From a bacterium (GTDB lineage Bacteria > Zhuqueibacterota > Zhuqueibacteria > Oceanimicrobiales > Oceanimicrobiaceae): DNA of 64,000 nt. The stretch lies in NCBI GenBank assembly GCA_046757025.1, contig JBHHXN010000014.1, positions 1,070 to 65,069 on the forward strand, in the 5' to 3' direction. The translations under genes were made by a program, and so were the position numbers. Shown here piece after piece: positions 9,199 to 30,528 of this stretch (position 1 is the first letter of the stretch; each line of letters begins with the position of its first letter). The notes beneath the pieces are model-generated. The model made no database searches. It had not been told where the DNA came from and was given only the letters and a program-made list of their open reading frames with translations.

Positions 9199-9202
9199 AG
9201 AA

Positions 9203-9512: not shown

Positions 9513-9571
9513 GGCATAGTTACATCAAAGGGCAGTAGTTAAACAAATGAAATGAATCGAAAATATCCATC

Positions 9572-11484: not shown

Positions 11485-11534
11485 ACGGTTGCCGGTATTT
11501 TGGGCGCAAAAAAAAACGGACACAGAAAAACCGC

Positions 11535-12089
11535 ATGAAGTTGAATCGCATCACCATAACGACGGTAAGTTTGTTTGCGGGTCTGGCGTTCGCCGGCGGC
11601 TACCTTTTTATCGCCATCCCCAATGTGGAAATATTTACCGCCGTGGTGTTTGTAGCGGGGGTTTTATTGGGTGCGCGCAACGGCGCCCTGGTGGGCATCA
11701 TCGCTCAAACGTTTTTTTCGTTGCTGAATCCGTTTGGCATGTCGCTGCCGCCTTTGCTGCTTGCCCAGGTTTTGAACCGCGCCCTGGTGGGTTATGCCGG
11801 CGGCAAGCTGCGGAATTTCTCAGACTTCAGTCAGATGAACTGGAAGAACTGCGCCATGCTGGGATTGACGGGTCTGGTTTTAACCTGGCTTTATGATCTC
11901 ATGGCGTATCTCAGCTTCTTTTTTATTTCGGGGTTTTCAATGGATCAAATGAAAACCACTTTTGCTCTGGGGCTGCCATTTTACCTCATTCACGGTCTGG
12001 TAAATACGGCCATATTTGTGTTGGTACTTCCGCTTTTGATTCGCGGATTACTCAGAATCGAATTCCTTAATACCGCCAGATTGAGTTGA
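11535..12089 (+). CDS. Small polytopic membrane protein, probably an ECF-type S component (substrate-capture subunit). The substrate is unknown and may be a thiamine precursor given the thiD neighbour.
   Basis: 184 aa with ~5-6 hydrophobic helices. A Gly-rich first helix and an overall profile like ECF S components. It lies immediately downstream of thiD. Confidence 0.45.
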   Translation: MKLNRITITTVSLFAGLAFAGGYLFIAIPNVEIFTAVVFVAGVLLGARNGALVGIIAQTFFSLLNPFGMSLPPLLLAQVLNRALVGYAGGKLRNFSDFSQMNWKNCAMLGLTGLVLTWLYDLMAYLSFFFISGFSMDQMKTTFALGLPFYLIHGLVNTAIFVLVLPLLIRGLLRIEFLNTARLS

Positions 12090-14056: not shown

Positions 14057-14079
14057 GCGCTAATCAATTAAACAATACA

Positions 14080-14300
14080 CGGGTAATTCCAAGAAATTGG
14101 GAGATAGGAAGCCGGTGAGAATCCGGCGCTGCCCCGCAACTGTAAGCAGCTACGAACGCTTGAAGCGCCACTGTTCTGCAGGCATCACGAGATGACGAAA
14201 AAAGTCAGAATGGGAAGGCAAAGCAAGTAGGAATGAAGCTGTAAGCCAGGAGACCTGCTCGTGGAATCTTTCGAGGGAAAGGCTGAGCATGTGCAAAGAT
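14080..14300 (+). promoter_or_regulatory. Cobalamin (AdoCbl) riboswitch aptamer
   Basis: 'GGAAGCCGGTGAGAATCCGGCGCTGCCCCGCAACTGTAA' matches the conserved cobalamin-riboswitch core. The B12 box 'GTAAGCCAGGAGACCTGC' lies at 14241-14258. 'GCCACTG' is present. Confidence 0.75.
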
Positions 14301-14513: not shown

Positions 14514-16685
14514 ATGGATAATCCAAAACGACTTGTCGCACTGATTTTTCTGTTGTTCATGGTTCCGATTGCCGGCCATGCCCAAAATGGGACTTTTTCA
14601 GGTTATGTTCGCGATCAATATTCACAGGAGCCGCTGCCGGACGTCAACATTGTGCTGGTCGGCACCCCCTATGGCGCCTCATCCAACAACGCGGGTTATT
14701 TTGAAATAAAAGCCCTGCCAGTTGGAAAATACCTCATTCAAGTCAGCAGAATTGGGTATGCCACCCTGCAGCAAGAAGTGGTTATCAAGCCCGATCAGGG
14801 CAACCGGCAGAATTTTCAATTGCGAGCACAGGCGGTTTTGTTCAACGAAGTTCTGGTTACCGCCACCCGAGAGAAGGCGTTAAATTCGGAAGTTTCGGTG
14901 GCCACGGATATTATCCCGCGATCTGAAATTGACCGGAGTGCTTCGCAAAACATCGGGGAAATTTTGGAGAGCTTGAGTCATGTGTTTGTCAAAAACTACG
15001 GCAACCTCGGGGCTTTAAAAACCGTGACCATGCGCGGTGCCAGCGAAAATCAGGTGCTGATATTGCTCGATGGACAAAGGCTAAACCTGGCGCAGGGCAT
15101 TGCGCCGGATCTGAGCGACATTCCCGTGCACGCCATCGAACGCATCGAAGTCACGCGTGGCGGCAATTCCGCGCTTTATGGCACCGACGCCATCGGCGGG
15201 GTGATCAATTTGATCACCCGCGGGCGCTTCAACCAAAAAGCCGTGAACGGAGGTTTCAATTCTACCATCGGCTCTTTTGGAACCCGCATTGTTTCGGCCA
15301 ATTTTGGCCAGACCCTGGGTGCGTTTAACTATTTTGTTGCTCACGAATATGCCGAAAGCGACGGCGACTTTCGATTTGAGAATGACAATTCAGAAAAAGT
15401 CAAACGCAGCAACAACAACCTCAAGTGGAACGACACGTTCGTAAAACTCAATTACTCACTTAACCCATCCACCTATTTCAGTGGCTATTTGCAGCTCCAC
15501 GACGCCGACCGCGGCGTGCCCGGGCCGTTGAGTTTTCCTTCAGAAAGCGCCACGCAAAAAGACAACTCAAAGAAATTCAATTTTAAATTTGACAAATATT
15601 TTTCCACCGGTTTAAATTTACAAGTGCAGACTTTCTTTTATCACACCATACAAAATTTTGACGATTCATCGGCTTTTTTCCCCATTCATAGTCTGCACAA
15701 AAATGACGCCTTTGGCTTCAGTTTGCAATCCAATTGGCGGCAGACCAAATTCAGCGAGTTCACCGGAGGCGTGGAATATCGGCAGGATAAAATCAACAGC
15801 ACCGATGTGGCCAAACAAAAGCAAACCATCGGCAGCGCGTTTGTGCAGAATGAGTTTAAGTTCCCTCTGGAGAACCTGTGGTCGCACAGCCACTTGAGTT
15901 TGGTGCCCGCTTTTCGAGTGGACAAAGTCACCGGCGAGGAAGCTCAGTGGAGTCCGAAATTCGGGTTTCATTTCAGTCATGCTTCCAATTATCAATTTAT
16001 CGTTCGCGGGAATTGGGGGCGATCTTTCCGGGTGCCGTCTTTTAACGATCTCCACTGGCCGGCTGGTTCGTTTACCGCGGGCAACCCCGATCTGGTTCCG
16101 GAGGAAGGCACAAGCTATGATTTCGGAATGATGCTGAATTTTCAAAAGGCTGCGTACTGGGGGTTCGAAATCAGCTTTTTTCAAACGCAGCTGGATAATT
16201 TGATTTTATGGGGTCCGCGGGCAGATGGCGTCTGGAGTCCGGATAACCTACAAAAAGCCAGTATCCGCGGATTGGAATTGAAATTCACCGTCCGGGATCT
16301 GGGCCGCTTCTTCAATCTCGTTGTTCGACACAATTACCTCCGCGCCGTGGACAACAGCGAGGATTCCAGTTTGAACGGCAGAACCCTGGTGTATCGACCG
16401 TCACATAAACTGGATCTCACGGCCGATTTTGATTTTGAATTCGTGACGTTTAATTGGATCTATCAGTATGTGGGCAAAAGATTCACTGCTCCGGACAACA
16501 GCACCTCTTTGACGGCGTATCATTTAAACCATCTTAGTCTGGTGAGGAGGCAATCCTTGTGGGGCGGGACGTTGAAAATCAGCGGGGAAATTCGCAACCT
16601 GTTTGATGATGAGCAGGTACAGGTCATCGCCGGATTTCCTATTTCCGGTCGGGAGTATCGAACGGTTCTGGGGTTTGAATTCTGA
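14514..16685 (+). CDS. TonB-dependent receptor, SusC/BtuB-like (CarboxypepD_reg-like N-domain + plug + 22-strand barrel). Probable cobalamin/corrinoid receptor.
   Basis: Signal peptide present. The 'GYVRD...PLPDVNIVLVG...GYFEIKALPVGKYLIQVSRIGY' N-domain, a plug ('TMRGASENQVLILLDGQRLN') and a C-terminal '...VLGFEF' are all present. Preceded by the cobalamin riboswitch. Confidence 0.8.
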   Translation: MDNPKRLVALIFLLFMVPIAGHAQNGTFSGYVRDQYSQEPLPDVNIVLVGTPYGASSNNAGYFEIKALPVGKYLIQVSRIGYATLQQEVVIKPDQGNRQNFQLRAQAVLFNEVLVTATREKALNSEVSVATDIIPRSEIDRSASQNIGEILESLSHVFVKNYGNLGALKTVTMRGASENQVLILLDGQRLNLAQGIAPDLSDIPVHAIERIEVTRGGNSALYGTDAIGGVINLITRGRFNQKAVNGGFNSTIGSFGTRIVSANFGQTLGAFNYFVAHEYAESDGDFRFENDNSEKVKRSNNNLKWNDTFVKLNYSLNPSTYFSGYLQLHDADRGVPGPLSFPSESATQKDNSKKFNFKFDKYFSTGLNLQVQTFFYHTIQNFDDSSAFFPIHSLHKNDAFGFSLQSNWRQTKFSEFTGGVEYRQDKINSTDVAKQKQTIGSAFVQNEFKFPLENLWSHSHLSLVPAFRVDKVTGEEAQWSPKFGFHFSHASNYQFIVRGNWGRSFRVPSFNDLHWPAGSFTAGNPDLVPEEGTSYDFGMMLNFQKAAYWGFEISFFQTQLDNLILWGPRADGVWSPDNLQKASIRGLELKFTVRDLGRFFNLVVRHNYLRAVDNSEDSSLNGRTLVYRPSHKLDLTADFDFEFVTFNWIYQYVGKRFTAPDNSTSLTAYHLNHLSLVRRQSLWGGTLKISGEIRNLFDDEQVQVIAGFPISGREYRTVLGFEF

Positions 16686-17194
16686 TGCACACCTGACGGA
16701 TTTCCGCCGGCCAATGCACGAAGGCGGCTAAGCGGTTGGATGCGGCCTGAGCAATTTTTCTTGGGCGCCTTCGTGTATGAGGTTTTTTCCTGTTTTGATG
16801 AATTTTTTATTGAGTGCATAGTCATCTGAGGCATTAATGGCCTCCATTTGCATTTTAAGGTAAGTGTTTCTTTATTCCTGCCGATAAAAATAACCACAAT
16901 GATTGGTAAGAAATTACACATCAGGCATTTTCACGAAAATTTTATCTCATAAAATAAAGCAAATCGAGCTTTTTGAACAAATATGAATCAAAGGATGAGG
17001 TAATTTTTAAATTAAGATGTAACTTTACAATCACTTGGCGTATATTCGAGCAAATTTTCGGGTAAATTTTCTTTACAAATAAAATCCCAGAAACCACGGG
17101 TAAATTTGTAAATTAAATGTTAAAATACTTTAACCTGCCTTCATCAAAAATTGCTTGACAATAAACATATTAAATTGTATTTTTCGATGTAAAA

Positions 17195-17220
17195 TGGTCG
17201 ATTATCGACCACTTTTTTTT
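17195..17220 (+). terminator. Orphan intrinsic terminator: TGGTCGA-TTA-TCGACCA followed by T8
   Basis: Perfect 7-bp stem followed by T8. It lies 510 bp after the receptor gene and 360 bp before the next CDS. Confidence 0.4.
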
Positions 17221-17581
17221 GTTCTCATATTGGAGCTTTATAAAACAACCGTTGAATTTTTTCAAGTATCCCGAAGCTCACTCTTCATTTTCATTCTTTT
17301 TTTAATCAATGCTTAATTTGACGGAATTGACCACAAAAAATGGAAATGATGATCAAACCGCACATAAATTTACAGGAATAATCAGCAAATGAGACGAACC
17401 GTCCCTTCCAGGATGCAGATAGAAATCTTCGATTTAATAAACCGCCCGTTTGTACTAAACGAACTATCAAATCTGAAAAATCCAAAATGTTTGTTTAAGC
17501 GGCGATTTGATCCTTCGCAGGACGCACGAACTTCGGGATAAATTAGCGAGAGGCGCAAACCCATTCACTCAGCACAACATC

Positions 17582-18529
17582 ATGGCTAATAACTCCAAAA
17601 CAAAAACCATTCTGGTTGTTGATGATGTTCCGGTAAACATTCAACTACTGCACACTTACCTCAGCCCCAAGGGCTACCACATAATCTCAGCAAAAAACGG
17701 AATTGAAGCAATTGACATGGTGCGAAAACATCGCCCGGATTTGGTACTTTTGGACGTGATGATGCCGCAGATGAATGGATTTGAGGTGTGTGAAATCATT
17801 AAAGCCGATAAAGAGGTCAGTTTCATTCCCGTGATTCTGGTGACCGCTTTAAAGGAAGTGGAAGATAAAATCAAAGGCGAGAACTCAGGAGCAGATGATT
17901 TCCTGAGCAAGCCGTTTGACAAACAAGAGCTGCTGGTACGTGTGCGCTCGTTGTTGCGAATTAAAGAGTTGCACGACAAACTCAATGAAAAGATCATCGA
18001 ACTGCAGCATGCGAAAGAAGAACTACGCCGATTAGCCATCACAGATGGTTTGACCGGGTTGTACAATTATCGATATTTCAAGGAGCAGCTGCTTCAGGAA
18101 TTGAACCGCGCACGTCGGCACAAGCTCAATGTCTCACTGGTTATGATCGATATCGATCATTTTAAATGCTACAATGACAAAAATGGCCATCCTGCTGGTG
18201 ACTTGGTTTTGAAAAACATCGCCAAACTTTTGCGGGACAATGTCCGCAATATTGATTTAGCAGCCAGATACGGTGGGGAAGAGTTTTGTCTGGTTTTGAT
18301 CGAAACCAACAAACCCTCTGCGAAAATTGTAGCAGAAAAAATTCGCCGCCTGGTGGAGGAATTTACTTTTGACTATGAAGAATTTCAACCGCAAGGGAAA
18401 ATAACCATCAGCACGGGCCTGGCCACCTTTCCGGACGATGCTCAAGAATTTGATGGATTAGTAGAAAAGGCCGACAATCGATTGTATCAAGCAAAACAGA
18501 AGGGAAGAAACGTCATTTTTGTCGAATAA
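17582..18529 (+). CDS. Response regulator with a GGDEF diguanylate-cyclase output (PleD-like REC-GGDEF)
   Basis: REC signature 'ILVVDDVPVN...LVLLDVMMPQMNGFEV'. The GGDEF domain has an intact 'RYGGEEF' active site. The start may alternatively be 17507. Confidence 0.85.
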   Translation: MANNSKTKTILVVDDVPVNIQLLHTYLSPKGYHIISAKNGIEAIDMVRKHRPDLVLLDVMMPQMNGFEVCEIIKADKEVSFIPVILVTALKEVEDKIKGENSGADDFLSKPFDKQELLVRVRSLLRIKELHDKLNEKIIELQHAKEELRRLAITDGLTGLYNYRYFKEQLLQELNRARRHKLNVSLVMIDIDHFKCYNDKNGHPAGDLVLKNIAKLLRDNVRNIDLAARYGGEEFCLVLIETNKPSAKIVAEKIRRLVEEFTFDYEEFQPQGKITISTGLATFPDDAQEFDGLVEKADNRLYQAKQKGRNVIFVE

Positions 18530-18542
18530 ATGAGGGAAATTC

Positions 18543-20027
18543 ATGAAGGTACCTTTGCTGAAAAATGATTCCATTTTCAGAAAATTATTCCTGTTGCATT
18601 TTCTGATTGCAGTACTACCCATTGCCTTATCCTGGATTTATTTTCTATATATACGCAACAGCAAGACTCTGGGCAACGAAGAATTCATGCCTTTCGTGTA
18701 CTATGGCTTACTAATTTTGACGTTCATGCTGGCCATGATCGGGGCGTTTTATTTCAGCAAAAAATTGAGCAAGCCCATCACACAGTTCAAAAAAAGCGCG
18801 CTGGAAATCGCCCGCGGCAACTTTTCGCTGAAAGTCCGCGTTCAGTCCAAAGATGAAATTGGACGGCTTGCCATGATCTTCAACTATATGGTGGAAGAAG
18901 TCAGACGATTGAACGAAAAAAACCTTTACAAAATCATCAATGAAAAAAACAAAACCGAAACCATCCTGAAAAATATTGCCGACAGCGTCATCATCACGGA
19001 CCCGCAAAACAAAATTATTTTGATCAATTCCATCGCCAAAAAGCGATTTGGTTTGTCGGGTACGGATTTTTTAGAGCGGCCAGTTGATGAATTCATCCAC
19101 AATGAGGATCTGATCAAATTCATTCACAATATCAATGATCATACCATTGACGATACAGAAACCATTGAGATAACAGTTTACTCTCCCGGTGAGACCAAAC
19201 CGGAGATTTTGCAAGCTCGGGCCGCGCGCATCGAGGACGACAAAAAGGAGCTCATCGGTATCGCCACGATTCTCAGAGACATTACACGCGAAAAGGAAAT
19301 CGACCGTTTGAAGACCGAACTGGTTTCGTTGGTAGCACATGAGCTGCGCTCCCCGCTGACCTGCATCTCTGGGTTCAGCGAGCTTTTGTTGGATCAATCC
19401 ATCACCCACGAACAGTTGGAAGAGTATGCTTCAATCATTTTGAAGGAGTCGAACCGACTGAGTGATTTGATCAACAAATTTTTGGACATCTCCAAAATCG
19501 AAGCCGGCAAGAGCCAGTTGCGGAAGTCGCCGGTGGACATGAAGCTGCTGATTGACCGGGTGCTCGATTTCAATTCCCAGCTTTCGGAAAAGAAAAATAT
19601 TCACGTGAGTTTTGAATCGCCGTCGGAAGTGTCAACCATCTACGTCGATCGCGATATGATGGAGCAAGTGGTTTTGAATTTGTTCTCAAATGCGGTGAAG
19701 TACAGTCCGGAAAATACCGAGTTGACCATCCGCATCACGGAATTGGACGACAAACTCATCCTGGAGTTTGAGGACCGCGGCTACGGCATTTCAGAAGAAT
19801 CCTTACCCAAAATCTTCAACAAATTTTACCGCATCACGGACAACGATCAAATTCGTGATATTGCTGGATCGGGATTAGGGTTGTCGCTGGTGAAAGAAAT
19901 TGTGGAAATTCACCAGGGCAATATTCAGGTGAAAAGCAAGCTGGGTGAGGGCTCGAATTTTATCGTTACCCTGCCCAAAACGCCGGTTATGGAAGAAGAA
20001 TTGGCGCATCAGGCATTGCTAATCTGA
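18543..20027 (+). CDS. Sensor histidine kinase (TM-HAMP-PAS-HisKA-HATPase_c)
   Basis: Two TM helices. The HAMP-like region reads 'IARGNFSLKVRVQSKDEIGRLAMIFNYMVEEV'. The H-box is 'HELRSPLTCISGFSELL' and the G-boxes are 'GSGLGLSLVKEIVEIHQGNIQVKSKLGEGSNF'. Confidence 0.85.
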   Translation: MKVPLLKNDSIFRKLFLLHFLIAVLPIALSWIYFLYIRNSKTLGNEEFMPFVYYGLLILTFMLAMIGAFYFSKKLSKPITQFKKSALEIARGNFSLKVRVQSKDEIGRLAMIFNYMVEEVRRLNEKNLYKIINEKNKTETILKNIADSVIITDPQNKIILINSIAKKRFGLSGTDFLERPVDEFIHNEDLIKFIHNINDHTIDDTETIEITVYSPGETKPEILQARAARIEDDKKELIGIATILRDITREKEIDRLKTELVSLVAHELRSPLTCISGFSELLLDQSITHEQLEEYASIILKESNRLSDLINKFLDISKIEAGKSQLRKSPVDMKLLIDRVLDFNSQLSEKKNIHVSFESPSEVSTIYVDRDMMEQVVLNLFSNAVKYSPENTELTIRITELDDKLILEFEDRGYGISEESLPKIFNKFYRITDNDQIRDIAGSGLGLSLVKEIVEIHQGNIQVKSKLGEGSNFIVTLPKTPVMEEELAHQALLI

Positions 20028-20101
20028 CCATGCTCAAAAGATAAAATCGGTATATAGAAAAACCCATCGCATTAGATTTAGTAACGATGAATATTTGGTA
20101 A

Positions 20102-22030
20102 TTGAAAAGGAAACCAGAGGTGCACGACGTCAACAAATTACGAAAGACCATTTTGTTCATCGATGATGATCCGGATATGCTGGAAATAGGCGGAATGATC
20201 ATCAACAAAGAGGGGTATCATTACCTCACCGCAGGCAGCGCAGAAGAAGGTCTGGCCACCATCCAGAAGAAACGGCCGGATCTGATCATTCTCGATTACA
20301 TGATGCCGCGGATGAACGGTTATGAGTTTTTCAAGGAGCTGAAACAGAATCCAAAATACAAGGCCGTCAGTGACGTGCCGGTGATTTTGTTAACGGCGGT
20401 GTCGGAAGAAGAAATCGAGCGCAAGGAATTATTTGAGATGGGATTGAGTGCGTTTCTGCTGAAGCCATTTGGAAATCGCGAGCTGTTGAACGTCATCGAC
20501 AACGTGTTTATACTTCACCAGATGAAGTTGAAAAATAAGGAGTTGCAGCAGGAGGTTAAACGCACCGAATACAAATACCAGGATTTGATTGAAAATGCCA
20601 GTGATCTGATCTTTACCCTCGATTTACAGGCCAGGTTTATTTTTATCAACAGACGACTGCCAAACATCATCGGATTTGATCGACAGCAATGGCTGGGTAA
20701 AAAGTTTTACGATCTGATCATGGCCGATGATCGTTCAAATGCCGAACACAATTTGAGGCAAACGCTCAATGGCCGCTCGAGCATCTTTGAAGTGAGAATT
20801 TATTCGGCTAACGGTCGCACTGTGCATTTGTCTGTGAATGTCAATCCCATTTTTGAAAAAGGTCAAATCGTGGGCTGCGTAGGTATTGCCAGAAACATCA
20901 CCGAAAAAAAGCAGCTGGAGATGGAAATTCTTGACCTTAAAAATTTCAACGAAAGCATCATTCAAAGTATGGGTTCGGGTTTGATTACGCTTGATTTGAA
21001 AAACAAGATTACCTCATTCAATAGCAGTGCAGAAGACATTTTAGGGTATTCCGAAAAGGAGGTCGTGGGGAAGTCTTTGGAAGAAATTTTTTCTGAAGAT
21101 AATTGTAAACAGCTATTGCCCATTATTGAAGACCCATCTCAAGGACTCTTGAATCGGGAGATGTCGCTGACGGCCAAGGAAGGCAATACCGTTTATGTGG
21201 GATTTTCGGTGACGCCGAGGTTTGATACCTTGAAGCAGCGGGTTGGGTCCATTATTGCGTTTAAGGATATTACTCAAATCAAGGAAATGCAGGTAGAAGT
21301 ACAGAGAATGGATCGACTGGCTTCCATGGGCGTTTTGGCCTCGGGCATTGCGCATGAAATACGCAATCCGCTGGCCGGAATAAAAACCATCGCGCAGACT
21401 TTAGAGGAAGAAATTGAAATAGAAGATCCACGCCGTGAGTATTTATCGCGAATTGTCAGGCAGGTCAACCGCATGGACGATCTTCTCAAGACCTTTTTTT
21501 CGTACGCAAAGCCCCGTCAACCCAAAAGAAAATATCATCGGTTTCAAGAGATTGTCCAGGAAGTGGTAGCGTTACTCGACAACCGCATTCGCGGTCAATC
21601 GGTTGAATATTCGGAATCGTACCATGCGGATCTGCCGCTGATTTATGTGGATTTTTATCAAATTCAGCAAGTGTTGGTCAATTTATTTTTAAATGCCCTG
21701 GATGCCATGCCGAAGGGTGGTGAATTAAAATTGAATGCGCAGCCCAAAGTCACCACATTGCACAGAGTGGATCGCCGGGGTCGCGCGTTTCCGGTGCAAA
21801 ACAAAAGCGCTCTGTATACGGAGGTCACCCTGCAGGATAGCGGTGAAGGAATCAAACCCGAGCACCTGCCATCCATTTTCAATCCATTTTACACCACGAA
21901 ACCGCAGGGCGCCGGACTGGGTTTATCCATCGTGTACCGAATCATGGCAGAGCACAACGGGGACATTCAAGTAGATAGCTGTGTGAATAATGGAACCACT
22001 TTTAAACTGCTAATGCCGACGGAGGAGTAA
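20102..22030 (+). CDS. Hybrid sensor kinase: N-terminal receiver, two PAS domains, HisKA and HATPase_c (NtrB/AtoS-type H-box)
   Basis: REC signature 'ILFIDDDPDMLE...LIILDYMMPRMNGYEF'. The H-box is 'HEIRNPLAGIKTIAQTL'. The ATP lid is 'GAGLGLSIVYRIMAEHNGDIQVDS'. Confidence 0.85.
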   Translation: MKRKPEVHDVNKLRKTILFIDDDPDMLEIGGMIINKEGYHYLTAGSAEEGLATIQKKRPDLIILDYMMPRMNGYEFFKELKQNPKYKAVSDVPVILLTAVSEEEIERKELFEMGLSAFLLKPFGNRELLNVIDNVFILHQMKLKNKELQQEVKRTEYKYQDLIENASDLIFTLDLQARFIFINRRLPNIIGFDRQQWLGKKFYDLIMADDRSNAEHNLRQTLNGRSSIFEVRIYSANGRTVHLSVNVNPIFEKGQIVGCVGIARNITEKKQLEMEILDLKNFNESIIQSMGSGLITLDLKNKITSFNSSAEDILGYSEKEVVGKSLEEIFSEDNCKQLLPIIEDPSQGLLNREMSLTAKEGNTVYVGFSVTPRFDTLKQRVGSIIAFKDITQIKEMQVEVQRMDRLASMGVLASGIAHEIRNPLAGIKTIAQTLEEEIEIEDPRREYLSRIVRQVNRMDDLLKTFFSYAKPRQPKRKYHRFQEIVQEVVALLDNRIRGQSVEYSESYHADLPLIYVDFYQIQQVLVNLFLNALDAMPKGGELKLNAQPKVTTLHRVDRRGRAFPVQNKSALYTEVTLQDSGEGIKPEHLPSIFNPFYTTKPQGAGLGLSIVYRIMAEHNGDIQVDSCVNNGTTFKLLMPTEE

Positions 22031-22035
22031 AATAG

Positions 22036-23406
22036 ATGACGAAAGCCAACGTGTTAATTGTTGAAGATAATGAAGATTTGTGCCAGACTCTGGCAGATGT
22101 TCTCAGAAAAGAAGGCAAAAAAGTTCGAACGGCTTTTACCGGCGAGCATGCCATCTCGATACTTAAAAAAGACATTATCGATTTGGTGCTGCTGGATATC
22201 AAACTGCCTGATTTTAACGGCATTAAAATTCTCGAAATGGTCAAGGAAATGGATCCCGACATTTCGGTTATCATGATCACCGCTTTGACCGATGCCAAAC
22301 CGGCGGTGGACGCCATGAAAATGGGGGCGTATGATTACTTGATGAAACCATTCGAGTTAGATGAGCTGAAACTGGTGGTGGCGAAAACGCTGGAGACCCA
22401 ACACCTCAAAAGAGAGGTTTCGCGCTTGAAAATCCAGCAGGAAAATCAGTTTCCGGATAACGAGCTGTACGGCAATTCCAAATCCATGCGAGAGCTCAAA
22501 AAACTGATAAAAATTGTGGCGGCCACCCCTAAGACCTCGGTTCTCATTCAAGGCGAAAGCGGCACGGGTAAGGAATTGGTAGCCAACGCCATACACAACT
22601 GGAGCGCCCGCGCCGATAAACCGCTGATTAAAATCAATTGCAGCGCCATTCCGGAAAACTTACTGGAAAGCGAATTGTTCGGTTATGAAAAGGGCGCCTT
22701 CACCGATGCCAAATCGATGAAGAAAGGCATTTTTGAAATGGCTAACGACGGGACCATTTTCCTGGATGAAATCTCCAGCATGCAAATGTCCATTCAACCC
22801 AAATTTTTACGGGTACTGGAAACCCAGTCTTTTCGCCGAATTGGCGGCACCTCCGACATCACCATGGATGTGAGAATCATCGCCGCCACCAATCGCAACC
22901 TGGAAGATTGCGTTGAACAGCAAGCATTTCGGGAAGATTTGTACTATCGACTCAAAGTGATGGTGCTCAACATTCCGGCCTTGCGCGACAGGACCGATGA
23001 TATTTTACCGCTGGCCATGCTCTTTATTGAACGAAGCAATAAAGAGTTTGGCAAAGATGTCAAATCCATTGCCAAAGATGCCACAGAGCGCCTGCTGAAA
23101 TACCGCTGGCCGGGAAACGTTAGAGAGTTAAAAAATGTCATCGAACGAGCGGTCATTTTGTGCAACAGCGAAGAGCTGTCTTCGGAGCATCTGCCCCTGG
23201 AGCTGCAAGACGGCTATTCCAAAATTTCCACTTCCTCCCAGTTTACTTCCTTTTCCAGCGAAGGGGACTCGCTGGAAGAGATGGAACGGCAACATATTAT
23301 TAACATGTTAAAAAAATATAAAGGCAACAAATCGCAAACTGCCCGAATTTTAAACATCTCTCGTTCGACATTGCGTGAAAAAATGAAAGTGTATAAAATA
23401 GCCTGA
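22036..23406 (+). CDS. σ54-dependent transcriptional activator, NtrC family (REC + AAA+ σ54-interaction domain + Fis-type HTH)
   Basis: REC signature 'VLIVEDNEDLCQ'. Walker A 'GESGTGKELVA'. The GAFTGA motif is present as 'GAFTDA'. 'RWPGNVRELKNVIERA' is present. The C-terminal HTH reads 'KGNKSQTARILNISRSTLREKMKVY'. RBS GGAGGAG. Confidence 0.9.
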   Translation: MTKANVLIVEDNEDLCQTLADVLRKEGKKVRTAFTGEHAISILKKDIIDLVLLDIKLPDFNGIKILEMVKEMDPDISVIMITALTDAKPAVDAMKMGAYDYLMKPFELDELKLVVAKTLETQHLKREVSRLKIQQENQFPDNELYGNSKSMRELKKLIKIVAATPKTSVLIQGESGTGKELVANAIHNWSARADKPLIKINCSAIPENLLESELFGYEKGAFTDAKSMKKGIFEMANDGTIFLDEISSMQMSIQPKFLRVLETQSFRRIGGTSDITMDVRIIAATNRNLEDCVEQQAFREDLYYRLKVMVLNIPALRDRTDDILPLAMLFIERSNKEFGKDVKSIAKDATERLLKYRWPGNVRELKNVIERAVILCNSEELSSEHLPLELQDGYSKISTSSQFTSFSSEGDSLEEMERQHIINMLKKYKGNKSQTARILNISRSTLREKMKVYKIA

Positions 23407-23440
23407 CTGGCCGATTTTCGGTCAGTCAGTTCTGTATTCT
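23403..23440 (+). terminator. Hairpin after the NtrC-family gene: weak terminator or attenuator
   Basis: CTGACTGGCCG-ATTTT-CGGTCAGTCAG is an 11-bp stem with one G·U pair. It is followed by TTCTGTATTCTCTC, which is U-rich but interrupted. Confidence 0.4.
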
Positions 23441-23601
23441 CTCTACAAATCCCCTCCCAACATTCATTTTCCACTATTTATTATTCCCTGCCAGGAATTT
23501 AATTTTTCCGCTATTAAGTAAAGGTTTTGCTTTTATATGACGAATACCAATTTGAGGTTCAGGCCTATTAAACTCCGATACGGAATGGCATAAGTACTGG
23601 A

Positions 23602-23616
23602 TGGCACAGGATTTGC
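23602..23616 (+). promoter_or_regulatory. σ54 (RpoN) promoter: TGGCAC-N5-TTGC
   Basis: Exact consensus -24 GG and -12 GC elements with 5-nt spacing, 45 nt upstream of ATG 23661. It lies immediately downstream of the NtrC-family activator gene. Confidence 0.7.
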
Positions 23617-23660
23617 GAAATTTGGCTGAGGGAAAGATTTAATTGGTTGAAGGAGTTTAT

Positions 23661-24329
23661 ATGACTGCCCAAAAGAAAATATTAATTGTGGATGATGAAG
23701 AGGATATCACTTGGGGCATCTCAAAAAGTTTAGACAAGTCGTATTATGGATTAGAAGTCAATTGTGTTCATTCCGGCGATGAAGCCTTGAATTTGATGAA
23801 CTCGAAAACTTTCGATCTGGTGGTGTCTGACATTCGAATGCCCGGTCGGGACGGCATGCAATTGATTCTGGATATTCGAAAACGTTATCCACATACCAAA
23901 GTCATCATCATGACCGCCTACGGATCGCAGCAGGTGAAAGACGAGGTTACCAATCGGGGTGGGTATTTCTACATTGAAAAGCCTTTTGATGTGGGCCACC
24001 TCAAACAAATCATTTTTGATGCTCTGGAAGTGGAGGACAACGGTTTCAAGGGATTTATTGAAAACGCCGGCGTTCGGGAATTGGTTGAGTACAACTGCAT
24101 CAGAAAACGCAATACTATGCTGGAAATTAATCAGGATCAACAGAAGGGGATGATTTATTTTCGAAATGGGGATGTGGTGCATGCTGAATGCGGCGAGCTG
24201 AAGGGAGAACACGCCTTGTTCAATATTCTGAATTGGCAGACCGGCACCTTTAAAATTAACCCTTGTAACTGGAATGTAAATAGAACCATCGCAAGAGACT
24301 GGAAATCCATTTTACATCATTGTATTTAA
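23661..24329 (+). CDS. Response regulator receiver domain fused to a C-terminal DUF4388/PATAN-like domain
   Basis: REC signature 'ILIVDDEEDI...LVVSDIRMPGRDGMQL...KVIIMTAYG'. The C-terminal 'GMIYFRNGDVVHAECGELKGEHALFNILNWQTGTFKI' fits the DUF4388 pattern. RBS AAGGAG 8 nt upstream. Confidence 0.7.
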   Translation: MTAQKKILIVDDEEDITWGISKSLDKSYYGLEVNCVHSGDEALNLMNSKTFDLVVSDIRMPGRDGMQLILDIRKRYPHTKVIIMTAYGSQQVKDEVTNRGGYFYIEKPFDVGHLKQIIFDALEVEDNGFKGFIENAGVRELVEYNCIRKRNTMLEINQDQQKGMIYFRNGDVVHAECGELKGEHALFNILNWQTGTFKINPCNWNVNRTIARDWKSILHHCI

Positions 24330-24360
24330 GAAATTCGTTTGAATTAATGAGGATTTGCTA

Positions 24361-25182
24361 ATGGGTGAAATAATAGCCATATCCAGCCAGAAAGGCGGCG
24401 TCGGAAAAACCACCACTGCCGTGAATTTGAGCGCCAGTTTGGTTACCCTCGGTCATCGCGTGCTTTTGATCGATATCGACCCGCAAGGTAGCATCGCCTT
24501 GACTTTTGGCTATGGTCGATATGATATCAAAGCGGGTATTCTGGATGTTTTCACCCGGAATTTACCCATGAGCCAGGCCGTACATGAAACGGGGATGCCA
24601 AATTTTGATTTTATCCCCACTAACCTCTGGTCAGATGAAAACGATAAACGCAAACTTATTGGTGTGGCTGGCAAAATAAAATTGAAAGAGGCCATCGCTC
24701 CCATCATGGACTTGTACGATTTCATCATTATCGATTGTCCGCCGTCATTGGGTAATCTCACTTTCAATGCGCTGGTGGCGGCCAACTCACTCATTGTCCC
24801 GATTCAATGTGAATATTATGCCTTAAAATCGCTGGGCCGATTTCTTAAGCTGACGCGGGTTATTAAAAATGACAGCAATCCGGATTTGAAATACCGGGGC
24901 TTTCTTTTAACCATGGTAGATCAGAGAAACAATCTTTCGAAAATTGTGATCGAAAAGATTCGATACACGCTTCAGGGGCTGGTGTTCGATACCATGATTC
25001 CGCGCAATGTGCGGCTGGCGGAAGTACCATACTACGGTAAACCGGTGATCAAAATCGATAAAAATTGTAAAGGCGCTACCAGTTACCTCAATTTAGCCAA
25101 AGAGTTGTTAGGTCAATTTCACACGGTGACCAAAGTTGAAAATGAGAAGGAAAAGAAAACAGAATTGGTGGAAGCAGCTTAA
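24361..25182 (+). CDS. ParA/Soj-family P-loop ATPase (deviant Walker A)
   Basis: 'IIAISSQKGGVGKTTTAVNLSASL' and 'LLIDIDPQGS' are ParA/Soj-type, not MinD-type. Confidence 0.85.
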   Translation: MGEIIAISSQKGGVGKTTTAVNLSASLVTLGHRVLLIDIDPQGSIALTFGYGRYDIKAGILDVFTRNLPMSQAVHETGMPNFDFIPTNLWSDENDKRKLIGVAGKIKLKEAIAPIMDLYDFIIIDCPPSLGNLTFNALVAANSLIVPIQCEYYALKSLGRFLKLTRVIKNDSNPDLKYRGFLLTMVDQRNNLSKIVIEKIRYTLQGLVFDTMIPRNVRLAEVPYYGKPVIKIDKNCKGATSYLNLAKELLGQFHTVTKVENEKEKKTELVEAA

Positions 25183-25251
25183 AATGAGATGACGAAATTT
25201 TTAACGGTGGAACAATTTATGTGAACAATTGATTGGAGGAGGTGGCCTATT

Positions 25252-25956
25252 TTGAATTCAACAACACTCATTCGATGGCTTAACAACGGGCTGTTTGTAG
25301 GATTGATGGCGCTGATGTTCATTTCCATGATCAATTTTTCTTCAAACGCCTTGACCACGGTGCAAGAAGAAGAAAGAATCACCGAATTGCGTACGTTTGT
25401 GCCGGAGATTCACGGCGTTTTGCACGCCAATCAAATGCGTTTGAAAAAGGTCACTGAAATTTATCAAATCATGAACAAATACAATCGCAATTTGCAACAG
25501 CCACAAAAATACGACATCGCCAACGAAATATACGAAATGAGTTTGAAATACCAGAATCTCGATGTGCTTTTGATATGCGCAACCATCACACACGAAAGTG
25601 CGCGTACCTGGCGCCGGGACGTCAAATCCCCGGCCGGCGCGCTGGGGTTGATGCAGATCATGCCGTATACCGGCCAGGTGTTAAGTAAGCTGGAAGGCAT
25701 TCCCTGGACCACGCCGGAAGAGGTTCTGTATAATCCCGTTTATAATATTCGGCTGGGATGTCGTTACCTTTCCTCTTTGATCGAAATGTACAATTTGGAT
25801 GGGGGGCTGGCTGCTTACAATGGCGGAGAAAAGCGCGCAGCAAAATGGCTGGCAAGCGGCCGCGATGATGAAATCCTGTATGAAGAAACCCGACTGTACA
25901 TTCCTGCCGTGTTGAAACTGTACGATGTATTCCGGAATAAAACCCTTTCACTTTAA
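25252..25956 (+). CDS. Membrane-anchored lytic transglycosylase (SLT domain)
   Basis: N-terminal TM helix. SLT motifs 'THESARTW' (catalytic Glu-Ser), 'GALGLMQIMPYTG' and 'AYNGG' are present. TTG start with a GGAGGAGG RBS. Confidence 0.75.
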   Translation: MNSTTLIRWLNNGLFVGLMALMFISMINFSSNALTTVQEEERITELRTFVPEIHGVLHANQMRLKKVTEIYQIMNKYNRNLQQPQKYDIANEIYEMSLKYQNLDVLLICATITHESARTWRRDVKSPAGALGLMQIMPYTGQVLSKLEGIPWTTPEEVLYNPVYNIRLGCRYLSSLIEMYNLDGGLAAYNGGEKRAAKWLASGRDDEILYEETRLYIPAVLKLYDVFRNKTLSL

Positions 25957-25974
25957 TTTAGATGCAATATTATT

Positions 25975-27903
25975 ATGCAAAGTGTTCAAAATATATTATC
26001 CGATACCGAGTTCAATCATGAATTAATCAATCGATTTTTTCATACGAACAGTTATTTTTATCGATGCCTTGAAAAAATAATTCAGCAACGAAAAAATAAC
26101 CGCAATCCTTCGAGCAAGCTGTTTAAAGAGCTTTTGGATAAATTGGTCGATTCGGATGATAAATTGGAAATGATTTCCTCCCTCTCGAAGATTGCGGGAT
26201 TTGACCAATTTGTCGAGAAATTAAATCAAGGGATAGGCTTGCTTCGGGATTCGGATCTGGATCTGGAACAGATGAAAATTGAAATCGAGAAACTGGCGCA
26301 AAATTTATTTAAGTGTGCCGACAAGGCGTTCGAAAACACGCAGGCAATAACTGCGGTGGAAGAAATGTTGAGCATTTCAAAATCGGACATTGAAATGATT
26401 CAATATCGGGAGTCAAGCTATCCAGAAAAGAATGGACCGGACGTTTTAACCATCGATGAAAGTCAAAAGATAGAAGAGACCGTTGTATTCACAGAGTCGC
26501 CTTCTCATGAGCCTGGTACAGCCAAACCTGAACTAAATCTGGATTCTTACGAAGACACTCCAGTGCAAAAATCGGAAGAAAAGGATGTCACTTTTAATCA
26601 AAAAGATGGCACGGAAGCCATTGATGAAGGTGGATGCGAGTTCAGAATAGATGAAGAAGGCGACTCTGTGAGTACAACTTTTTCCCATAGAGCTCTTTCG
26701 CAACCCATCAACAGTGAGCCAGAGAGCGTGGTCACGGTTTTTCAAAAAGAGACCCAAAATCAAATCGAGCAAATTCAACAAACGATTGACTCGTTAAAGA
26801 CCGACTTGAAAAATGCCAAGCAGTGGCGTGGTTGTGAGGACATATTCGAAAAGATGGCTGCCAACGCCATGGTTTACGGTTTTGATGCGTTTGAACAAAT
26901 TGCTGCCAAAGCCAATGTGTTGGTGAAAGTGGCTCTGATTAAGCTGGATATTTTACCGGCGACGATTCTGGATTTGCTCTCAGAAATAAAGGACGTTTTA
27001 CAATCTATTCTCAACAGCGATGTGGATCGAATAGAAAAAAAACAGGTAGATAGGCTTTTGCATAAATTGCAAAATCCAAAAAAATATTTTGAAAATGTCA
27101 GCCTGAATCCGGAAGAAAATCTTAACAAATACATAAAAAAAAACTCTCGAGAAACTACGCTAACTGAGGGTGCCGCTGAAAACGGTGACTCAGTAGCCTT
27201 GGATGAAGTTCAAACCCCTATCGATAACGAAAATTCAGAGCGTACGCCGGTAAATTTCACATTACCAGGCGAAGATGACGAAGAAATCCTCAGTCTGGTT
27301 TCTGAAATTTCAAACCACTACGATGTGGGAAATAATTGTCAAACCCAAGCTGTCCAGTCGGACACAGTAACAGCCTCAGAATTCAACCTAAAAAAAAAGC
27401 CGTTAAAAATAAACGAAGTTGAATCCGCCAAAAACGGAGTCACTGTTGTCGCGGATCAGCAGCTCTGTCTATTCAAGCAGCAAGCAGAATTTTATTATTC
27501 CGTAATTGAGGAAGCGTTAACTAAACTTCAAAGCACGCCAAATGACCAAAACGCACTGGAAGACCTGGAGCTGGCGTCAAATTCACTTTATGGTCTGACA
27601 CTGAAGCTGAAATTAGAACCCCTGAGTAAATTTCCGGCTGGCATCGAAGAGCTCATCGGTAACGTCCTAACCACCAATGCCAGTCTTACCACGGATGATT
27701 ACCGACTGATCCGGGAAGTTTATGCGAATTTTAAAGAATTTACCTGTCTGGAAGATTCGGAATCTCGTCATTGTAAAGAGCTCATAAGTTCTGTAAACCG
27801 ACTCAACTCAGCTATAAGCACGCGAGCGATGACAAAAAACAAGCAAGAAAATATTTTTAAAATCACCAGAAACGATATGGAAGGAAATTTACTGATTGTG
27901 TAA
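25975..27903 (+). CDS. Acidic 642-aa hypothetical protein with three degenerate HPt/CheA-P1-like helix-hairpin repeats and long low-complexity acidic linkers. Candidate scaffold.
   Basis: Repeats at 'LSKIAGFDQFVEKLNQGIGLL', 'FEKMAANAMVYGFDAFEQIAAKANVLVKV' and 'LELASNSLYGLTLKLKLEPL'. The regions between them are rich in E/D/S/T. Confidence 0.6.
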   Translation: MQSVQNILSDTEFNHELINRFFHTNSYFYRCLEKIIQQRKNNRNPSSKLFKELLDKLVDSDDKLEMISSLSKIAGFDQFVEKLNQGIGLLRDSDLDLEQMKIEIEKLAQNLFKCADKAFENTQAITAVEEMLSISKSDIEMIQYRESSYPEKNGPDVLTIDESQKIEETVVFTESPSHEPGTAKPELNLDSYEDTPVQKSEEKDVTFNQKDGTEAIDEGGCEFRIDEEGDSVSTTFSHRALSQPINSEPESVVTVFQKETQNQIEQIQQTIDSLKTDLKNAKQWRGCEDIFEKMAANAMVYGFDAFEQIAAKANVLVKVALIKLDILPATILDLLSEIKDVLQSILNSDVDRIEKKQVDRLLHKLQNPKKYFENVSLNPEENLNKYIKKNSRETTLTEGAAENGDSVALDEVQTPIDNENSERTPVNFTLPGEDDEEILSLVSEISNHYDVGNNCQTQAVQSDTVTASEFNLKKKPLKINEVESAKNGVTVVADQQLCLFKQQAEFYYSVIEEALTKLQSTPNDQNALEDLELASNSLYGLTLKLKLEPLSKFPAGIEELIGNVLTTNASLTTDDYRLIREVYANFKEFTCLEDSESRHCKELISSVNRLNSAISTRAMTKNKQENIFKITRNDMEGNLLIV

Positions 27904-27980
27904 AATGGTTTCCTCTGGAAAGTTTGTTTGAGTTTTTAATTTATTTGAGATTTCGATTACAAAAATAGGTTGATAAGAAG

Positions 27981-29675
27981 ATGGCTGCTCATAACGTTGA
28001 AATAGACCAACAATTGGAAGACGTGTTAAAATCGCACAAGACAAAAATTCGCATCGTCGGCATCGGTGGTGGGGGTAATAATACCGTTACCCGTTTGCTG
28101 GAAGTGGGGATCAAAGGCGTAGAGGTGATTGCGGTGAACACCGATGCCCAGGATTTGCTGTTCGCCAAAGCCGATCACAAAATATTGATCGGCAAGAACG
28201 TCACCAGCGGTTTAGGTGCGGGTAGCGATCCGGTGAAAGGGGCGGAGTCCGCACAGGAGAGCCTCAAAGAAATTGAGGGTTTGCTGAATGACAGCGACAT
28301 GGTGTTCGTGACCTGCGGGCTGGGTGGAGGGACTGGCACTGGCGCTTCACCGGTGCTTGCGGAAGTGGCCAAAATGAACGGTGCTTTGACTATCGCTATT
28401 GTCACCCTGCCGTTTGGCGATGAGGGCATCGTCCGTTGGGAAAACGCGCAGAGGGGGTTAGAACAATTGCAGCAAAAAGTGGATACCGTGATCGTGGTGC
28501 AAAATGATCGGCTGTTGGATTTGGTGCCGGATATGTCGCTGAACGCCGCTTTCAAAGTTGCTGATGAAATTTTGGTGAACGCGGTCAAAGGCATCACTGA
28601 GCTGGTGACTGAAAAAGGGCTGGTTAATCTCGATTTTGCCGACGTAAAAACCATTATGAAGAACGGCGGCCTGGCCATGATCGGGCTGGGTGAAAGCGAC
28701 CACGAAAACAACGCAGAGGAAGCGGCTCAAAAAGCGCTCAAGAATCCCCTTCTGGATGTGGAGATCACCGGTGCTAAAAACGCGTTGATCAACATCACCG
28801 GCGGACAGGAGCTGTCGCTAAAATCCTCAAAAACAATCATGAAAATCATTTCCGAACGACTGGATCCTTCAGCAAAAATTATCTGGGGCGCCCGTCTGGA
28901 TGAATCCATGGGGCAATCACTTCGCGTGATGCTGATCGTGACCTGTTTGCAATCGAAGCGCCGATCGGCATCCGAAATCGATATGGTAATTCGGCAAACC
29001 GGTCGCAGTGTCTTGCTGCCCATTCAAAAAGAACAAAAAGAGGTGGAAGTGGTAAAGGTTGAGGATGCGGAGCCGTCGGAACAAGTCGAGGCGTCCACAG
29101 GCCCTCAAAAACATCAAGCGAAGCAAGTTTTCTCTGAAATTTTTTTGGAAGATTGTGAAGCAGACATAACTCGGCTGAGGGATGCTGTGAAAGGTTTGGC
29201 AGTCGGTGAAAATTCGCTGAATGAGAAATATTTGCGGGAAATCAAAAGCGCCTGCACCTCATTGTACAACACCGCTGAATTGTTTTCGTATCCGATAATT
29301 TCGGAATTTGCAGAAGTAGCGGGAGAAGTTACGGACAAGGCGTTATCGAGGGAGTTCGATCTGACTGAAAATTTGATTACCATTTATCAGAATATGCCTG
29401 CGGTTTTAGATGGTTTGCTAAAGAAAAAGGAGCACAGCCGGGAGTATGCCGAAGAGATAAAAATACAGTTTACAAATATATTGAAGCTGTTTGAGCAATC
29501 AGAAGGAGGAAATGAGAGGGAATTCGTCGAATCCGAAGTACCTAAAAACGATAATCAAAATAAGCTGGATATATCGGAAGCGGCCGAAATCACTGAGCAA
29601 AAGAAGGATGGGGAGAAAAAACCGGAATTTTCAAATGTCAGAGATGCCGTAAAATACATTGATAAACTGCTATAA
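27981..29675 (+). CDS. FtsZ-family tubulin-like GTPase with a ~230-aa C-terminal extension carrying an HPt-like motif
   Basis: 'IRIVGIGGGGNNTV', 'NTDAQDL', 'CGLGGGTGTGASPVLAEVAK' and a T7-loop 'NLDFADVKTIM' are present. The C-terminal extension contains 'IKSACTSLYNTAELFSYPIISEFAEVAGEV'. The gene is not in a recognisable dcw context. Confidence 0.85.
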   Translation: MAAHNVEIDQQLEDVLKSHKTKIRIVGIGGGGNNTVTRLLEVGIKGVEVIAVNTDAQDLLFAKADHKILIGKNVTSGLGAGSDPVKGAESAQESLKEIEGLLNDSDMVFVTCGLGGGTGTGASPVLAEVAKMNGALTIAIVTLPFGDEGIVRWENAQRGLEQLQQKVDTVIVVQNDRLLDLVPDMSLNAAFKVADEILVNAVKGITELVTEKGLVNLDFADVKTIMKNGGLAMIGLGESDHENNAEEAAQKALKNPLLDVEITGAKNALINITGGQELSLKSSKTIMKIISERLDPSAKIIWGARLDESMGQSLRVMLIVTCLQSKRRSASEIDMVIRQTGRSVLLPIQKEQKEVEVVKVEDAEPSEQVEASTGPQKHQAKQVFSEIFLEDCEADITRLRDAVKGLAVGENSLNEKYLREIKSACTSLYNTAELFSYPIISEFAEVAGEVTDKALSREFDLTENLITIYQNMPAVLDGLLKKKEHSREYAEEIKIQFTNILKLFEQSEGGNEREFVESEVPKNDNQNKLDISEAAEITEQKKDGEKKPEFSNVRDAVKYIDKLL

Positions 29676-29692
29676 TCATTTTCAAAAGAAAC

Positions 29693-30364: not shown

Positions 30365-30528
30365 AATTTTAACGGGCACTATGTTGAACGTAGTTGCGTA
30401 TCCTTTTCAGCGACTGTGTTGTTTTACGGGATTTACTGGATGCACGAGATGGAATTGTTCATCCATTAAATCACCATTAATTGAACCAAAATAGCCCTGC
30501 CCCGGTTTTACTACAACTCCCCATTATG

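Follow-up and report, generated by a model that had tools for sequence, protein, structure and literature searches.

A signalling cassette with a predicted σ54 activator in front of an archaeal-type FtsZ operon of an uncultured bacterial lineage

In the DNA stretch analyzed here (64,000 nt of contig JBHHXN010000014.1, from an uncultured bacterium of the KSB1/Calditrichota type; hereafter the window), four signalling genes, encoding a REC-GGDEF diguanylate cyclase, two histidine kinases (HK1 and REC-HK2) and an NtrC-type activator, are placed directly in front of an operon containing a gene for an archaeal-type FtsZ. This arrangement raises the question of whether the signalling cassette controls the operon and, if so, through which DNA sites. 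The comparative analysis described below makes it probable that the cassette activator drives the adjacent σ54 promoter, i.e., that a σ70-transcribed multi-kinase module would switch on the FtsZ operon. Such a cis pairing of activator gene and σ54 target had been proposed in a preliminary description of this DNA, and it was borne out by synteny and by the retention, across approximately 14 loci, of the −24/−12 element and of a palindrome at about −195. A search of the literature did not reveal any earlier description of the cassette or the operon.

The σ54 promoter, its candidate enhancer and the activator

A genome scan based on REC-PATAN, the product of the first gene of the operon, yielded ten orthologous loci in metagenome-assembled genomes of candidate division KSB1, Caldithrix and Calditrichaeota. 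Distant FtsZ homologues (47–52% identity) led to further lineages with the cassette (L055; L056/L057) and to one without it (L053/L054). As revealed by tblastn, the genes form a block with the order REC-GGDEF, HK1, REC-HK2, activator, REC-PATAN, ParA, SLT, 642-aa protein, FtsZ, 223-aa protein and guaB. This block is syntenic in L005–L013, L015, L055, L056, L071 and L073, with activators that are 60–85% identical, and REC-PATAN orthologues directly follow the promoter in 13 loci. In L053/L054 (1.27-Mb contig; 5850–11707 and 19642–21707), only the ParA-to-FtsZ part is present; the cassette and REC-PATAN are missing from the block. Approximately 8 kb downstream, these loci contain two genes with PATAN domains, of which one encodes a 539-aa REC-PATAN protein.

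The putative σ54 promoter begins 195 nt after the stop codon of the activator gene and ends 44 nt before the ATG of the REC-PATAN gene. The preliminary description had placed a TGGCAC-N5-TTGC element near the end of the activator gene, which is correct, at a distance of 196 bp, which is one too many. A single σ54 motif in 64 kb is near chance and not significant alone: the pattern TGGYAY-N5-TTGC occurs twice in the window versus 0.82 occurrences expected from shuffled sequences, and 17% of the shuffles reach at least two. The motif gains its significance from conservation, since each of the 14 loci has it at this position, 45–60 bp before the next start codon; these loci were retrieved without use of the −24/−12 motif. 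The spacer between the activator gene and the next gene (250–640 bp) is kept in all loci and is otherwise diverged, the intergenic alignment having a mean column identity of 52% and three conserved islands. No further σ54-like sites were found within the target operon (23000–31200). In both sequence and placement, the element corresponds to a predicted σ54-dependent promoter.

The first of the conserved islands is a 17-bp palindrome (consensus TGGYCRA-N3-TYGRCCA). It is present in 14/14 loci, and in 11 of these it precedes the −24 element by 189–210 bp. The preliminary description had suggested looking for a palindromic upstream activator sequence 80–150 bp before the promoter; such a palindrome does exist, at approximately 195 bp and thus farther upstream than predicted. 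A position weight matrix constructed from the first set of sites gave one match with a score of at least 15 in 569 kb of unrelated control loci, and on four loci left out of its construction it produced matches solely at the expected places. In the established σ54 mechanism, enhancers are located at least 100 bp upstream of the promoter and looping is aided by IHF or HU (PMC4641369).

Closer to the promoter, the intergenic alignment contains a T-rich island of conservation, designated element B. Read on the opposite strand, it agrees at every position with the IHF consensus WATCAANNNNTTR in 6 of 11 loci (by inspection). The element may be a site at which IHF or HU bends the DNA, or it may be bound by the activator as a second site. 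A metagenome scan for the −24/−12 element with the palindrome at 170–195 bp gave 18 matches versus approximately 12 expected, and revealed no extra members of the regulon; three of the matches were orthologous loci and the others had unrelated contexts and base compositions.

According to Pfam, the activator is the only cassette protein with a DNA-binding domain. Its receiver (Response_reg, 2.6e-27) contains the motifs DLVLLDIKLPD, IMITA and LMKPF, and its AAA+ domain (Sigma54_activat, 1.7e-69) contains the Walker A and B motifs GESGTGKE and FLDEI. A c-di-GMP site of the FleQ type was considered: the motif behind Walker A is …ARN.H in FleQ and …ANAIH here, a difference to which we attach no weight. 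The recognition helix of the HTH_8 domain (4.2e-14), ISRSTLREKMK, is invariant among the orthologues, those of L055 and L056 included. The L1 loop reads GAFTDA and not GAFTGA in each of the 13 orthologues inspected; in unrelated activators from this data set, the loop is GAFTGA and the recognition helices are different. Judged from its receiver and AAA+ domain, the protein can be assigned to the response-regulator class (NtrC-like) of enhancer-binding proteins, with the GAFTDA loop in variant form. GAFTDA is listed among the variants that retain activation, and is given for a characterized σ54 activator, DVU2106 (PMC4641369). The possibility that the activator is an NtrC or AtoC orthologue was rejected, as its best NCBIfam matches score under both equivalog cut-offs (AtoC, 453 versus 714; NtrC, TIGR01818, 403 versus 559).

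The signalling cassette, its own promoter and the proposed circuit

The coordinates of all features are summarized in Table 1. The four signalling genes are arranged head to tail with intergenic gaps of 13, 74 and 5 nt, and four public metagenome contigs that share this gene order encode an identical activator protein. None of the cassette proteins reaches an NCBIfam equivalog cut-off.

Table 1. Predicted genes and sites of the signalling cassette and of the adjacent FtsZ operon (positions in the window)
Feature	Position	Strand	Basis
Inverted repeat TGTTAAAATACTTTAAC	17118–17134	+	invariant in 7/7 aligned orthologous upstream regions
σ70-type promoter, TTGACA-17 nt-TATTTT, TG before −10	17155–17183	+	predicted from sequence and conservation
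17-bp palindrome, upstream copy, TGGTCGATTATCGACCA	17195–17211	+	perfect match to palindrome pattern
REC-GGDEF diguanylate cyclase	17582–18529	+	Pfam: Response_reg 2.4e-30, GGDEF 1.3e-50
HK1, membrane histidine kinase (two transmembrane helices, HAMP, PAS, HisKA, HATPase_c)	18543–20027	+	Pfam, sequence
REC-HK2, cytoplasmic kinase (N-terminal REC, PAS, PAS, HisKA, HATPase_c)	20102–22030	+	Pfam
NtrC-type activator (Response_reg, Sigma54_activat, AAA_lid, HTH_8)	22036–23406	+	Pfam
17-bp palindrome, downstream copy, TGGCCGATTTTCGGTCA; proposed upstream activator sequence	23408–23424	+	kept in 14 loci
Element B, T-rich, AAGGTTTTGCTTTTATATGACGAATACC	23519–23548	+	island of conservation in intergenic alignment
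Putative σ54 promoter core, TGGCAC-AGGAT-TTGC (−24/−12)	23602–23616	+	sequence, kept in 14/14 loci
REC-PATAN (DUF4388) response regulator, first target gene	23661–24329	+	Pfam; ribosome-binding site AAGGAG 6 nt upstream
ParA/MinD-like ATPase	24355–25182	+	Pfam, synteny
SLT lytic transglycosylase	25252–25956	+	Pfam, synteny
642-aa protein with HPt-like region, no Pfam domain	25975–27903	+	hhalign
Archaeal-type FtsZ with C-terminal pseudo-HPt	27981–29675	+	Pfam, comparison with PDB structures
223-aa protein	29693–30364	+	synteny

The receivers of the cassette and that of REC-PATAN, four in all, have the acidic pair, the phospho-accepting Asp, the Thr/Ser and the Lys intact. Both kinases have HisKA and HATPase_c matches and intact H, N, G1 and G2 boxes, the H-boxes being AHELRSPL in HK1 (HELRSPL) and AHEIRNPL in REC-HK2 (HEIRNPLAGI). 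The loop between the two transmembrane helices of HK1 comprises only about 10 aa, and HK1 orthologues are 50–66% identical. REC-HK2 (642 aa) has its receiver at the N-terminus (residues 17–132); an alternative GTG start at 20120 corresponds to the public 636-aa gene call in the identical contigs. The REC-GGDEF protein has one receiver, a GGEEF active site and an RxxD I-site five residues upstream of it (motif RNIDLAARYGGEEF, shared by the window, L005, L006 and L013); its orthologues are 62–76% identical and share the Met start. With these features REC-GGDEF has the sequence hallmarks expected of an active diguanylate cyclase, and a cyclase gene is kept in every locus in which that end is visible.

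Several relatives carry additional genes within the cassette. A gene for a further PAS kinase, some versions of which include a receiver, is located between HK1 and REC-HK2 as a third kinase gene in L011 (1528–3365), L012 (4865–6472) and L015 (1010–2206), and the same gap in L005 contains an 83-aa open reading frame (6157–6408) resembling a lone His-containing DHp helix.

The promoter predicted for the cassette is the best σ70-like match in the region 16600–31200 (10/12 positions). Its −35 and extended −10 elements are conserved in 7/7 aligned orthologous regions, and the hexamers are also found in L071. A second copy of the palindrome follows this conserved TTGACA-17-TATTTT promoter in 8 loci. 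In the window this copy is the sole perfect match to the palindrome pattern (chance estimate, approximately 0.008 per window); it is located 387 bp before REC-GGDEF and 11 nt after the −10 hexamer, a distance that varies between 2 and 14 nt across the loci. The element TGAACGATTWTYGACCAC occupies the equivalent place in L005–L009 and L012, and the palindrome is also present in the independently found L071, where it starts 2 nt past the −10. The location of these copies suggests an operator at the transcription start, and hence NtrC-like autoregulation.

A different role of the upstream copy, as the enhancer of a local σ54 promoter, was considered and rejected, since no σ54 motif is shared there. 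No σ54 promoter within one mismatch precedes REC-GGDEF in the window, L005, L007, L008 or L009; L006 and L013 have one one-mismatch match each, at positions that are not shared.

Two further elements were noticed around this promoter. The inverted repeat of Table 1, approximately 20 bp upstream of the −35 hexamer, is conserved in the seven aligned loci (TGTTAAnATACTTTAAC) and is probably the site of a further transcription factor, i.e., of an additional regulator of the cassette. A weaker, partly conserved palindrome-like site (TGGCCAATTTTGAAACA type) was observed 213–226 bp upstream of the operator copy, at 16974–16990 in the window and at 1896, 2211 and 945 in L005, L006 and L009, respectively; it could be a looping partner.

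In three loci a gcvPB-like gene (glycine dehydrogenase subunit 2, as assigned by reading the sequence) is inserted between the promoter with its palindrome and REC-GGDEF (L005, 2170–3624; L006, 2496–3938; L013, 1361–2830), and the inserted gene apparently shares a transcript with the signalling genes. An Rfam scan of the whole window did not identify any RNA family in or near the cassette, and the long 5′ regions match no known riboswitch, including those for cyclic di-GMP (c-di-GMP). The sole Rfam match is a cobalamin riboswitch (14064–14276; 92.5 bits, E 1e-21) just 5′ of a TonB-dependent receptor gene (14514–16685). Other signalling genes of the window encode a HAMP-adenylate/guanylate cyclase (38780–40288) and, on the minus strand, a 1096-aa BTAD-AAA_16-TPR regulator (3624–6914). 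The remainder of the window consists of housekeeping genes and lacks a dcw cluster.

Taken together, these data are consistent with the following circuit. The four signalling genes would form one σ70-transcribed operon encoding a multi-kinase two-component module, in which REC-HK2, being adjacent and AtoS/NtrB-like, is the likeliest kinase for the activator. Once phosphorylated, the activator would bind the palindrome approximately 195 bp upstream of the σ54 promoter and loop to the σ54-RNA polymerase, possibly with the help of element B, which would switch on the operon for REC-PATAN, ParA, SLT, the pseudo-HPt protein and the archaeal-type FtsZ. At the upstream palindrome it would autoregulate the σ70 promoter of the cassette, probably by repression. 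Two tiers of kinases are proposed because of the receiver similarities and of the AtoS/AtoC-type best matches: among the receivers, those of REC-GGDEF and REC-HK2 resemble each other most (41% identity, versus 25–35% for the others), the top NCBIfam matches of REC-HK2 and the activator are the cognate partners AtoS (338 bits; cut-off 646) and AtoC, and the REC-PATAN receiver best matches those of AtoC and NtrC. HK1 may thus phosphorylate REC-GGDEF and the receiver of REC-HK2, gating c-di-GMP synthesis and HK2 activity, and HK2 may phosphorylate the activator and perhaps REC-PATAN too. The binder of the palindrome, the phosphorylation partners, the direction of autoregulation and the effect of c-di-GMP are all predicted from sequence.

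This scheme modifies the preliminary description in several respects. The order of the four co-directional genes stood, although each of the three gaps had been given as one nucleotide longer (14, 75 and 6 bp), and the domain composition agreed with Pfam and sequence inspection apart from two labels. REC-HK2 had been called a hybrid kinase acting in a phosphorelay; no phosphorelay is indicated, because its receiver is N-terminal and the HPt-like domains encoded downstream carry Ser/Thr instead of the His of a true HPt. The receiver looks like a regulatory input and not like a relay output. The cyclase is not PleD-like, having one receiver versus two and an NCBIfam PleD score of 351.7 bits (cut-off 474). 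The claimed link between c-di-GMP and the operon was overstated, as its basis is the conserved co-operonic position and no c-di-GMP receptor was identified. Finally, an activator gene next to its target, presented as typical of developmental circuits, is typical of enhancer-binding proteins in general.

Alternative explanations

The palindromes might act as RNA hairpins and not as protein-binding sites, with an intrinsic terminator behind the activator gene, a leader attenuator behind the σ70 promoter, and element B or an unrecognized site serving as the enhancer. In the window both copies do fold well: the upstream one is followed by T8, and the downstream one is part of a 12-bp stem (23403–23429, −20 kcal/mol) that reaches into the activator stop codon, giving a terminator-like match. 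Several arm differences are G·U-compatible (by inspection), and the closer relatives show strong conservation of element B. However, five of the six upstream copies (ΔG of 0) and two of the eight downstream copies are essentially without hairpin stability though their sequence is kept, which argues that the upstream copies are conserved as sequence; across all downstream copies ΔG ranges from −0.6 to −20 kcal/mol, and a T-tail is missing in most copies. In L053 the palindrome (TGGTCAGATTCTGACCA) lies in front of the ParA-to-FtsZ genes, 201 bp upstream of TGGCATGTGGGTTGC, with no adjacent activator gene and with a divergent upstream neighbour, so that no co-directional gene precedes it; in L056 it is found 490 bp past the activator stop codon and yet 189 bp from the −24. 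Element B, for its part, is not present in L053, L055 and L056, and its distance to the −24 varies. Since the spacing in L053 and L056 tracks the promoter and hairpin stability is variable, the palindrome is read mainly as a protein-binding site, and it most likely behaves as an enhancer site and not merely as a terminator. We consider it unlikely that the palindromes are simply hairpins; a dual role, as enhancer and weak terminator, is possible.

If the palindrome binds a protein, this could be a factor other than the cassette activator, for example a repressor, with the σ54 promoter being served by another enhancer-binding protein and the cassette activator acting elsewhere. L053 and L054, with promoter and palindrome but no adjacent activator gene, would fit this explanation, and the genomes probably encode several such activators (many paralogues appeared in the genome scan). 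It is nonetheless improbable: the activator gene is adjacent in 13 of 14 lineages spanning 47–85% protein identity, its HTH helix and GAFTDA loop are co-conserved with the palindrome, and the same palindrome marks the promoter of the activator operon itself, with no further copy in the window and a single matrix match in the control loci. The −24/−12 element might also be unused, the ten genes being simply co-transcribed from 17155 as one σ70 transcript. The genes are co-directional with short gaps, a canonical terminator with a T-tail is missing behind the activator gene in most loci, and a single motif per window is close to chance expectation. Against this, the motif is present in 14/14 loci despite diverged flanks, it is retained in L053 despite a divergent upstream gene, and the long spacer with its three footprints is kept everywhere; simple co-transcription is therefore a highly improbable explanation.

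Control of the operon by the cassette activator through the palindrome remains the explanation that we favor, and the following observations weigh against it. Activators usually bind two or more sites, and we see one strong palindrome per promoter. In three loci the distance between palindrome and promoter is deviant (158, 366 and 379 bp), and element B, whose position varies, is unexplained. A terminator role of the palindrome that follows the activator stop codon in the window is possible. The gene for σ54, rpoN, is absent from the 64 kb analyzed. The assignments of kinases to receivers are predictions from adjacency and similarity. In L007 (10652–12166; the same in L067) the cassette, the promoter and REC-PATAN are kept and the genes from ParA to that of the 223-aa protein are missing; approximately 1.5 kb without a convincing plus-strand open reading frame is followed there by guaB, as a result of deletion or misassembly, and the obligatory target may accordingly be REC-PATAN only. 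Lastly, for VfmH, another protein with a GAFTDA loop, the effect of the substitution on the contact with σ54 is stated to be unknown (PMC10714721).

The FtsZ operon and comparison with known systems

The genes of the target operon from ParA to the 223-aa protein (24355–30364) are separated by gaps of 17–77 nt. In most of the orthologous operons an extra gene for a CheY-like receiver (127–140 aa) is located between ParA and SLT (e.g., L005, 11503–11895; L006, 11511–11906; L055, 6094–6510); at this place the window has a 69-nt gap (25183–25251), the gene having been lost in this lineage.

The FtsZ protein (MFQ5602527.1) is most similar to FtsZ1 of Methanocaldococcus jannaschii (390 bits; 56% identity, ungapped, over 318 residues), versus approximately 290 bits for the best bacterial FtsZ structures, and within the 64-kb window its gene is located outside any dcw cluster. 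It carries an extension of approximately 240 aa with a CheA-P1-like domain, which is shared by more than 100 FtsZ homologues of 540–600 residues from KSB1/Calditrichota-like metagenomes. A profile of this C-terminal domain matched CheA P1 (1i5n) with an E value of 4.6e-9, and 19 of 25 members match Pfam Hpt; the position of the phospho-His is Ser/Thr throughout the family. The C-terminus contains a conserved peptide (FSNVRDAVKYFDKLF; FSNVRDAVKY[IF]DKL[LF]). A match to the same profile was obtained for residues 255–367 of the 642-aa protein (hhalign E 3.4e-5, probability 72%), and none was detected by hhalign in the 223-aa protein, for which a single sequence was used. The pseudo-HPt domains proposed in the preliminary description were thus confirmed for FtsZ, are probable for the middle of the 642-aa protein and went undetected in the 223-aa protein. 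Judging from these profiles, the HPt-like domains are genuine but inactive. No notable transfer of ftsZ from archaea to bacteria was described in a survey of this protein family published in 2023.

Promoters of the σ54 type are silent without their activator. For this reason the FtsZ module is predicted to be switched off unless a signal induces it, and this would point to a conditional process and not to housekeeping division. A more far-reaching interpretation, which we regard as doubtful, is that the cassette is the master switch of a conditional second FtsZ machine of archaeal type and acts on two levels, namely through σ54 activation and through receivers docking on the histidine-less P1-like domains. 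The same kinases would then phosphorylate REC-PATAN and, in most relatives, the extra CheY-like protein, and the phosphorylated receivers would dock on the pseudo-HPt domains of FtsZ and of the 642-aa protein. If so, phosphorylation would directly steer how the FtsZ polymer, the ParA-like ATPase and the lytic transglycosylase assemble or where they are placed, and the locus would represent a device for division or morphogenesis that is gated by a signal and based on an archaeally acquired FtsZ.

Among known systems, the cassette may be compared with the enteric NtrB-NtrC pair (promoters glnAp2, glnAp1 and glnLp), in which a regulator with the REC-AAA+-HTH_8 architecture is phosphorylated by an adjacent kinase of the HEI[KR]NPL type. 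NtrC binds 17-bp palindromes (6-N5-6) at least 100 bp upstream of a σ54 promoter, and similar sites over σ70 promoters lead to negative autoregulation. The architecture of the regulator, the type and adjacency of the kinase, and 17-bp palindromes both far upstream and at a σ70 promoter are common to the two systems. The cassette differs in its palindrome (TGGTCA-N5-TGACCA), its GAFTDA loop and its NCBIfam NtrC score, which is below the cut-off, in an operon that combines two or three kinases with a diguanylate cyclase, and in a target that is cytoskeletal and cell wall-related and does not serve nitrogen assimilation. AtoS-AtoC of Escherichia coli provides the top matches for both partners, again under the cut-offs; unlike AtoS, REC-HK2 lacks a membrane domain and carries an additional receiver at its N-terminus, and there are no ato genes.

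The ORP operons of Desulfovibrio vulgaris include MinD/ParA-type ATPases. Their σ54 activator DVU2106 has the same GAFTDA loop, and its gene is located beside its targets; a table in PMC4641369, which cites Fievet et al. 2011, classes DVU2106/ORP under "cell division". In contrast to the cassette activator, DVU2106 is a one-component protein with no receiver, FtsZ, PATAN and SLT are missing from its targets, and its host belongs to a different phylum.

With the PleC/DivJ-PleD and WspR/DgcR-type systems the cassette shares a receiver-controlled GGEEF cyclase, an RxxD I-site and an adjacent HisKA kinase; it differs from PleD in having a single receiver instead of two, its DgcR score is 220 (cut-off 500), and no c-di-GMP effector was identified downstream. 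PatA of Anabaena, a PATAN-receiver protein, interacts with division factors and destabilizes the divisome during differentiation (PMC7380572). The window likewise has genes for a PATAN-receiver protein and for FtsZ-based machinery, and it differs in the domain order (REC-PATAN versus PATAN-REC), in the predicted σ54 promoter and in the archaeal-type FtsZ paralogue with its pseudo-HPt domain.

The regulatory design of the cassette therefore belongs to a well-known kind, with two-component kinases, an enhancer-binding protein and σ54, and this logic is textbook; the interest of the locus lies in its unusual target, the archaeal-type FtsZ. For an uncultured lineage, the comparison of loci defines a candidate 17-bp enhancer, a promoter, a GAFTDA activator and two candidate kinases, all of which can be tested heterologously.

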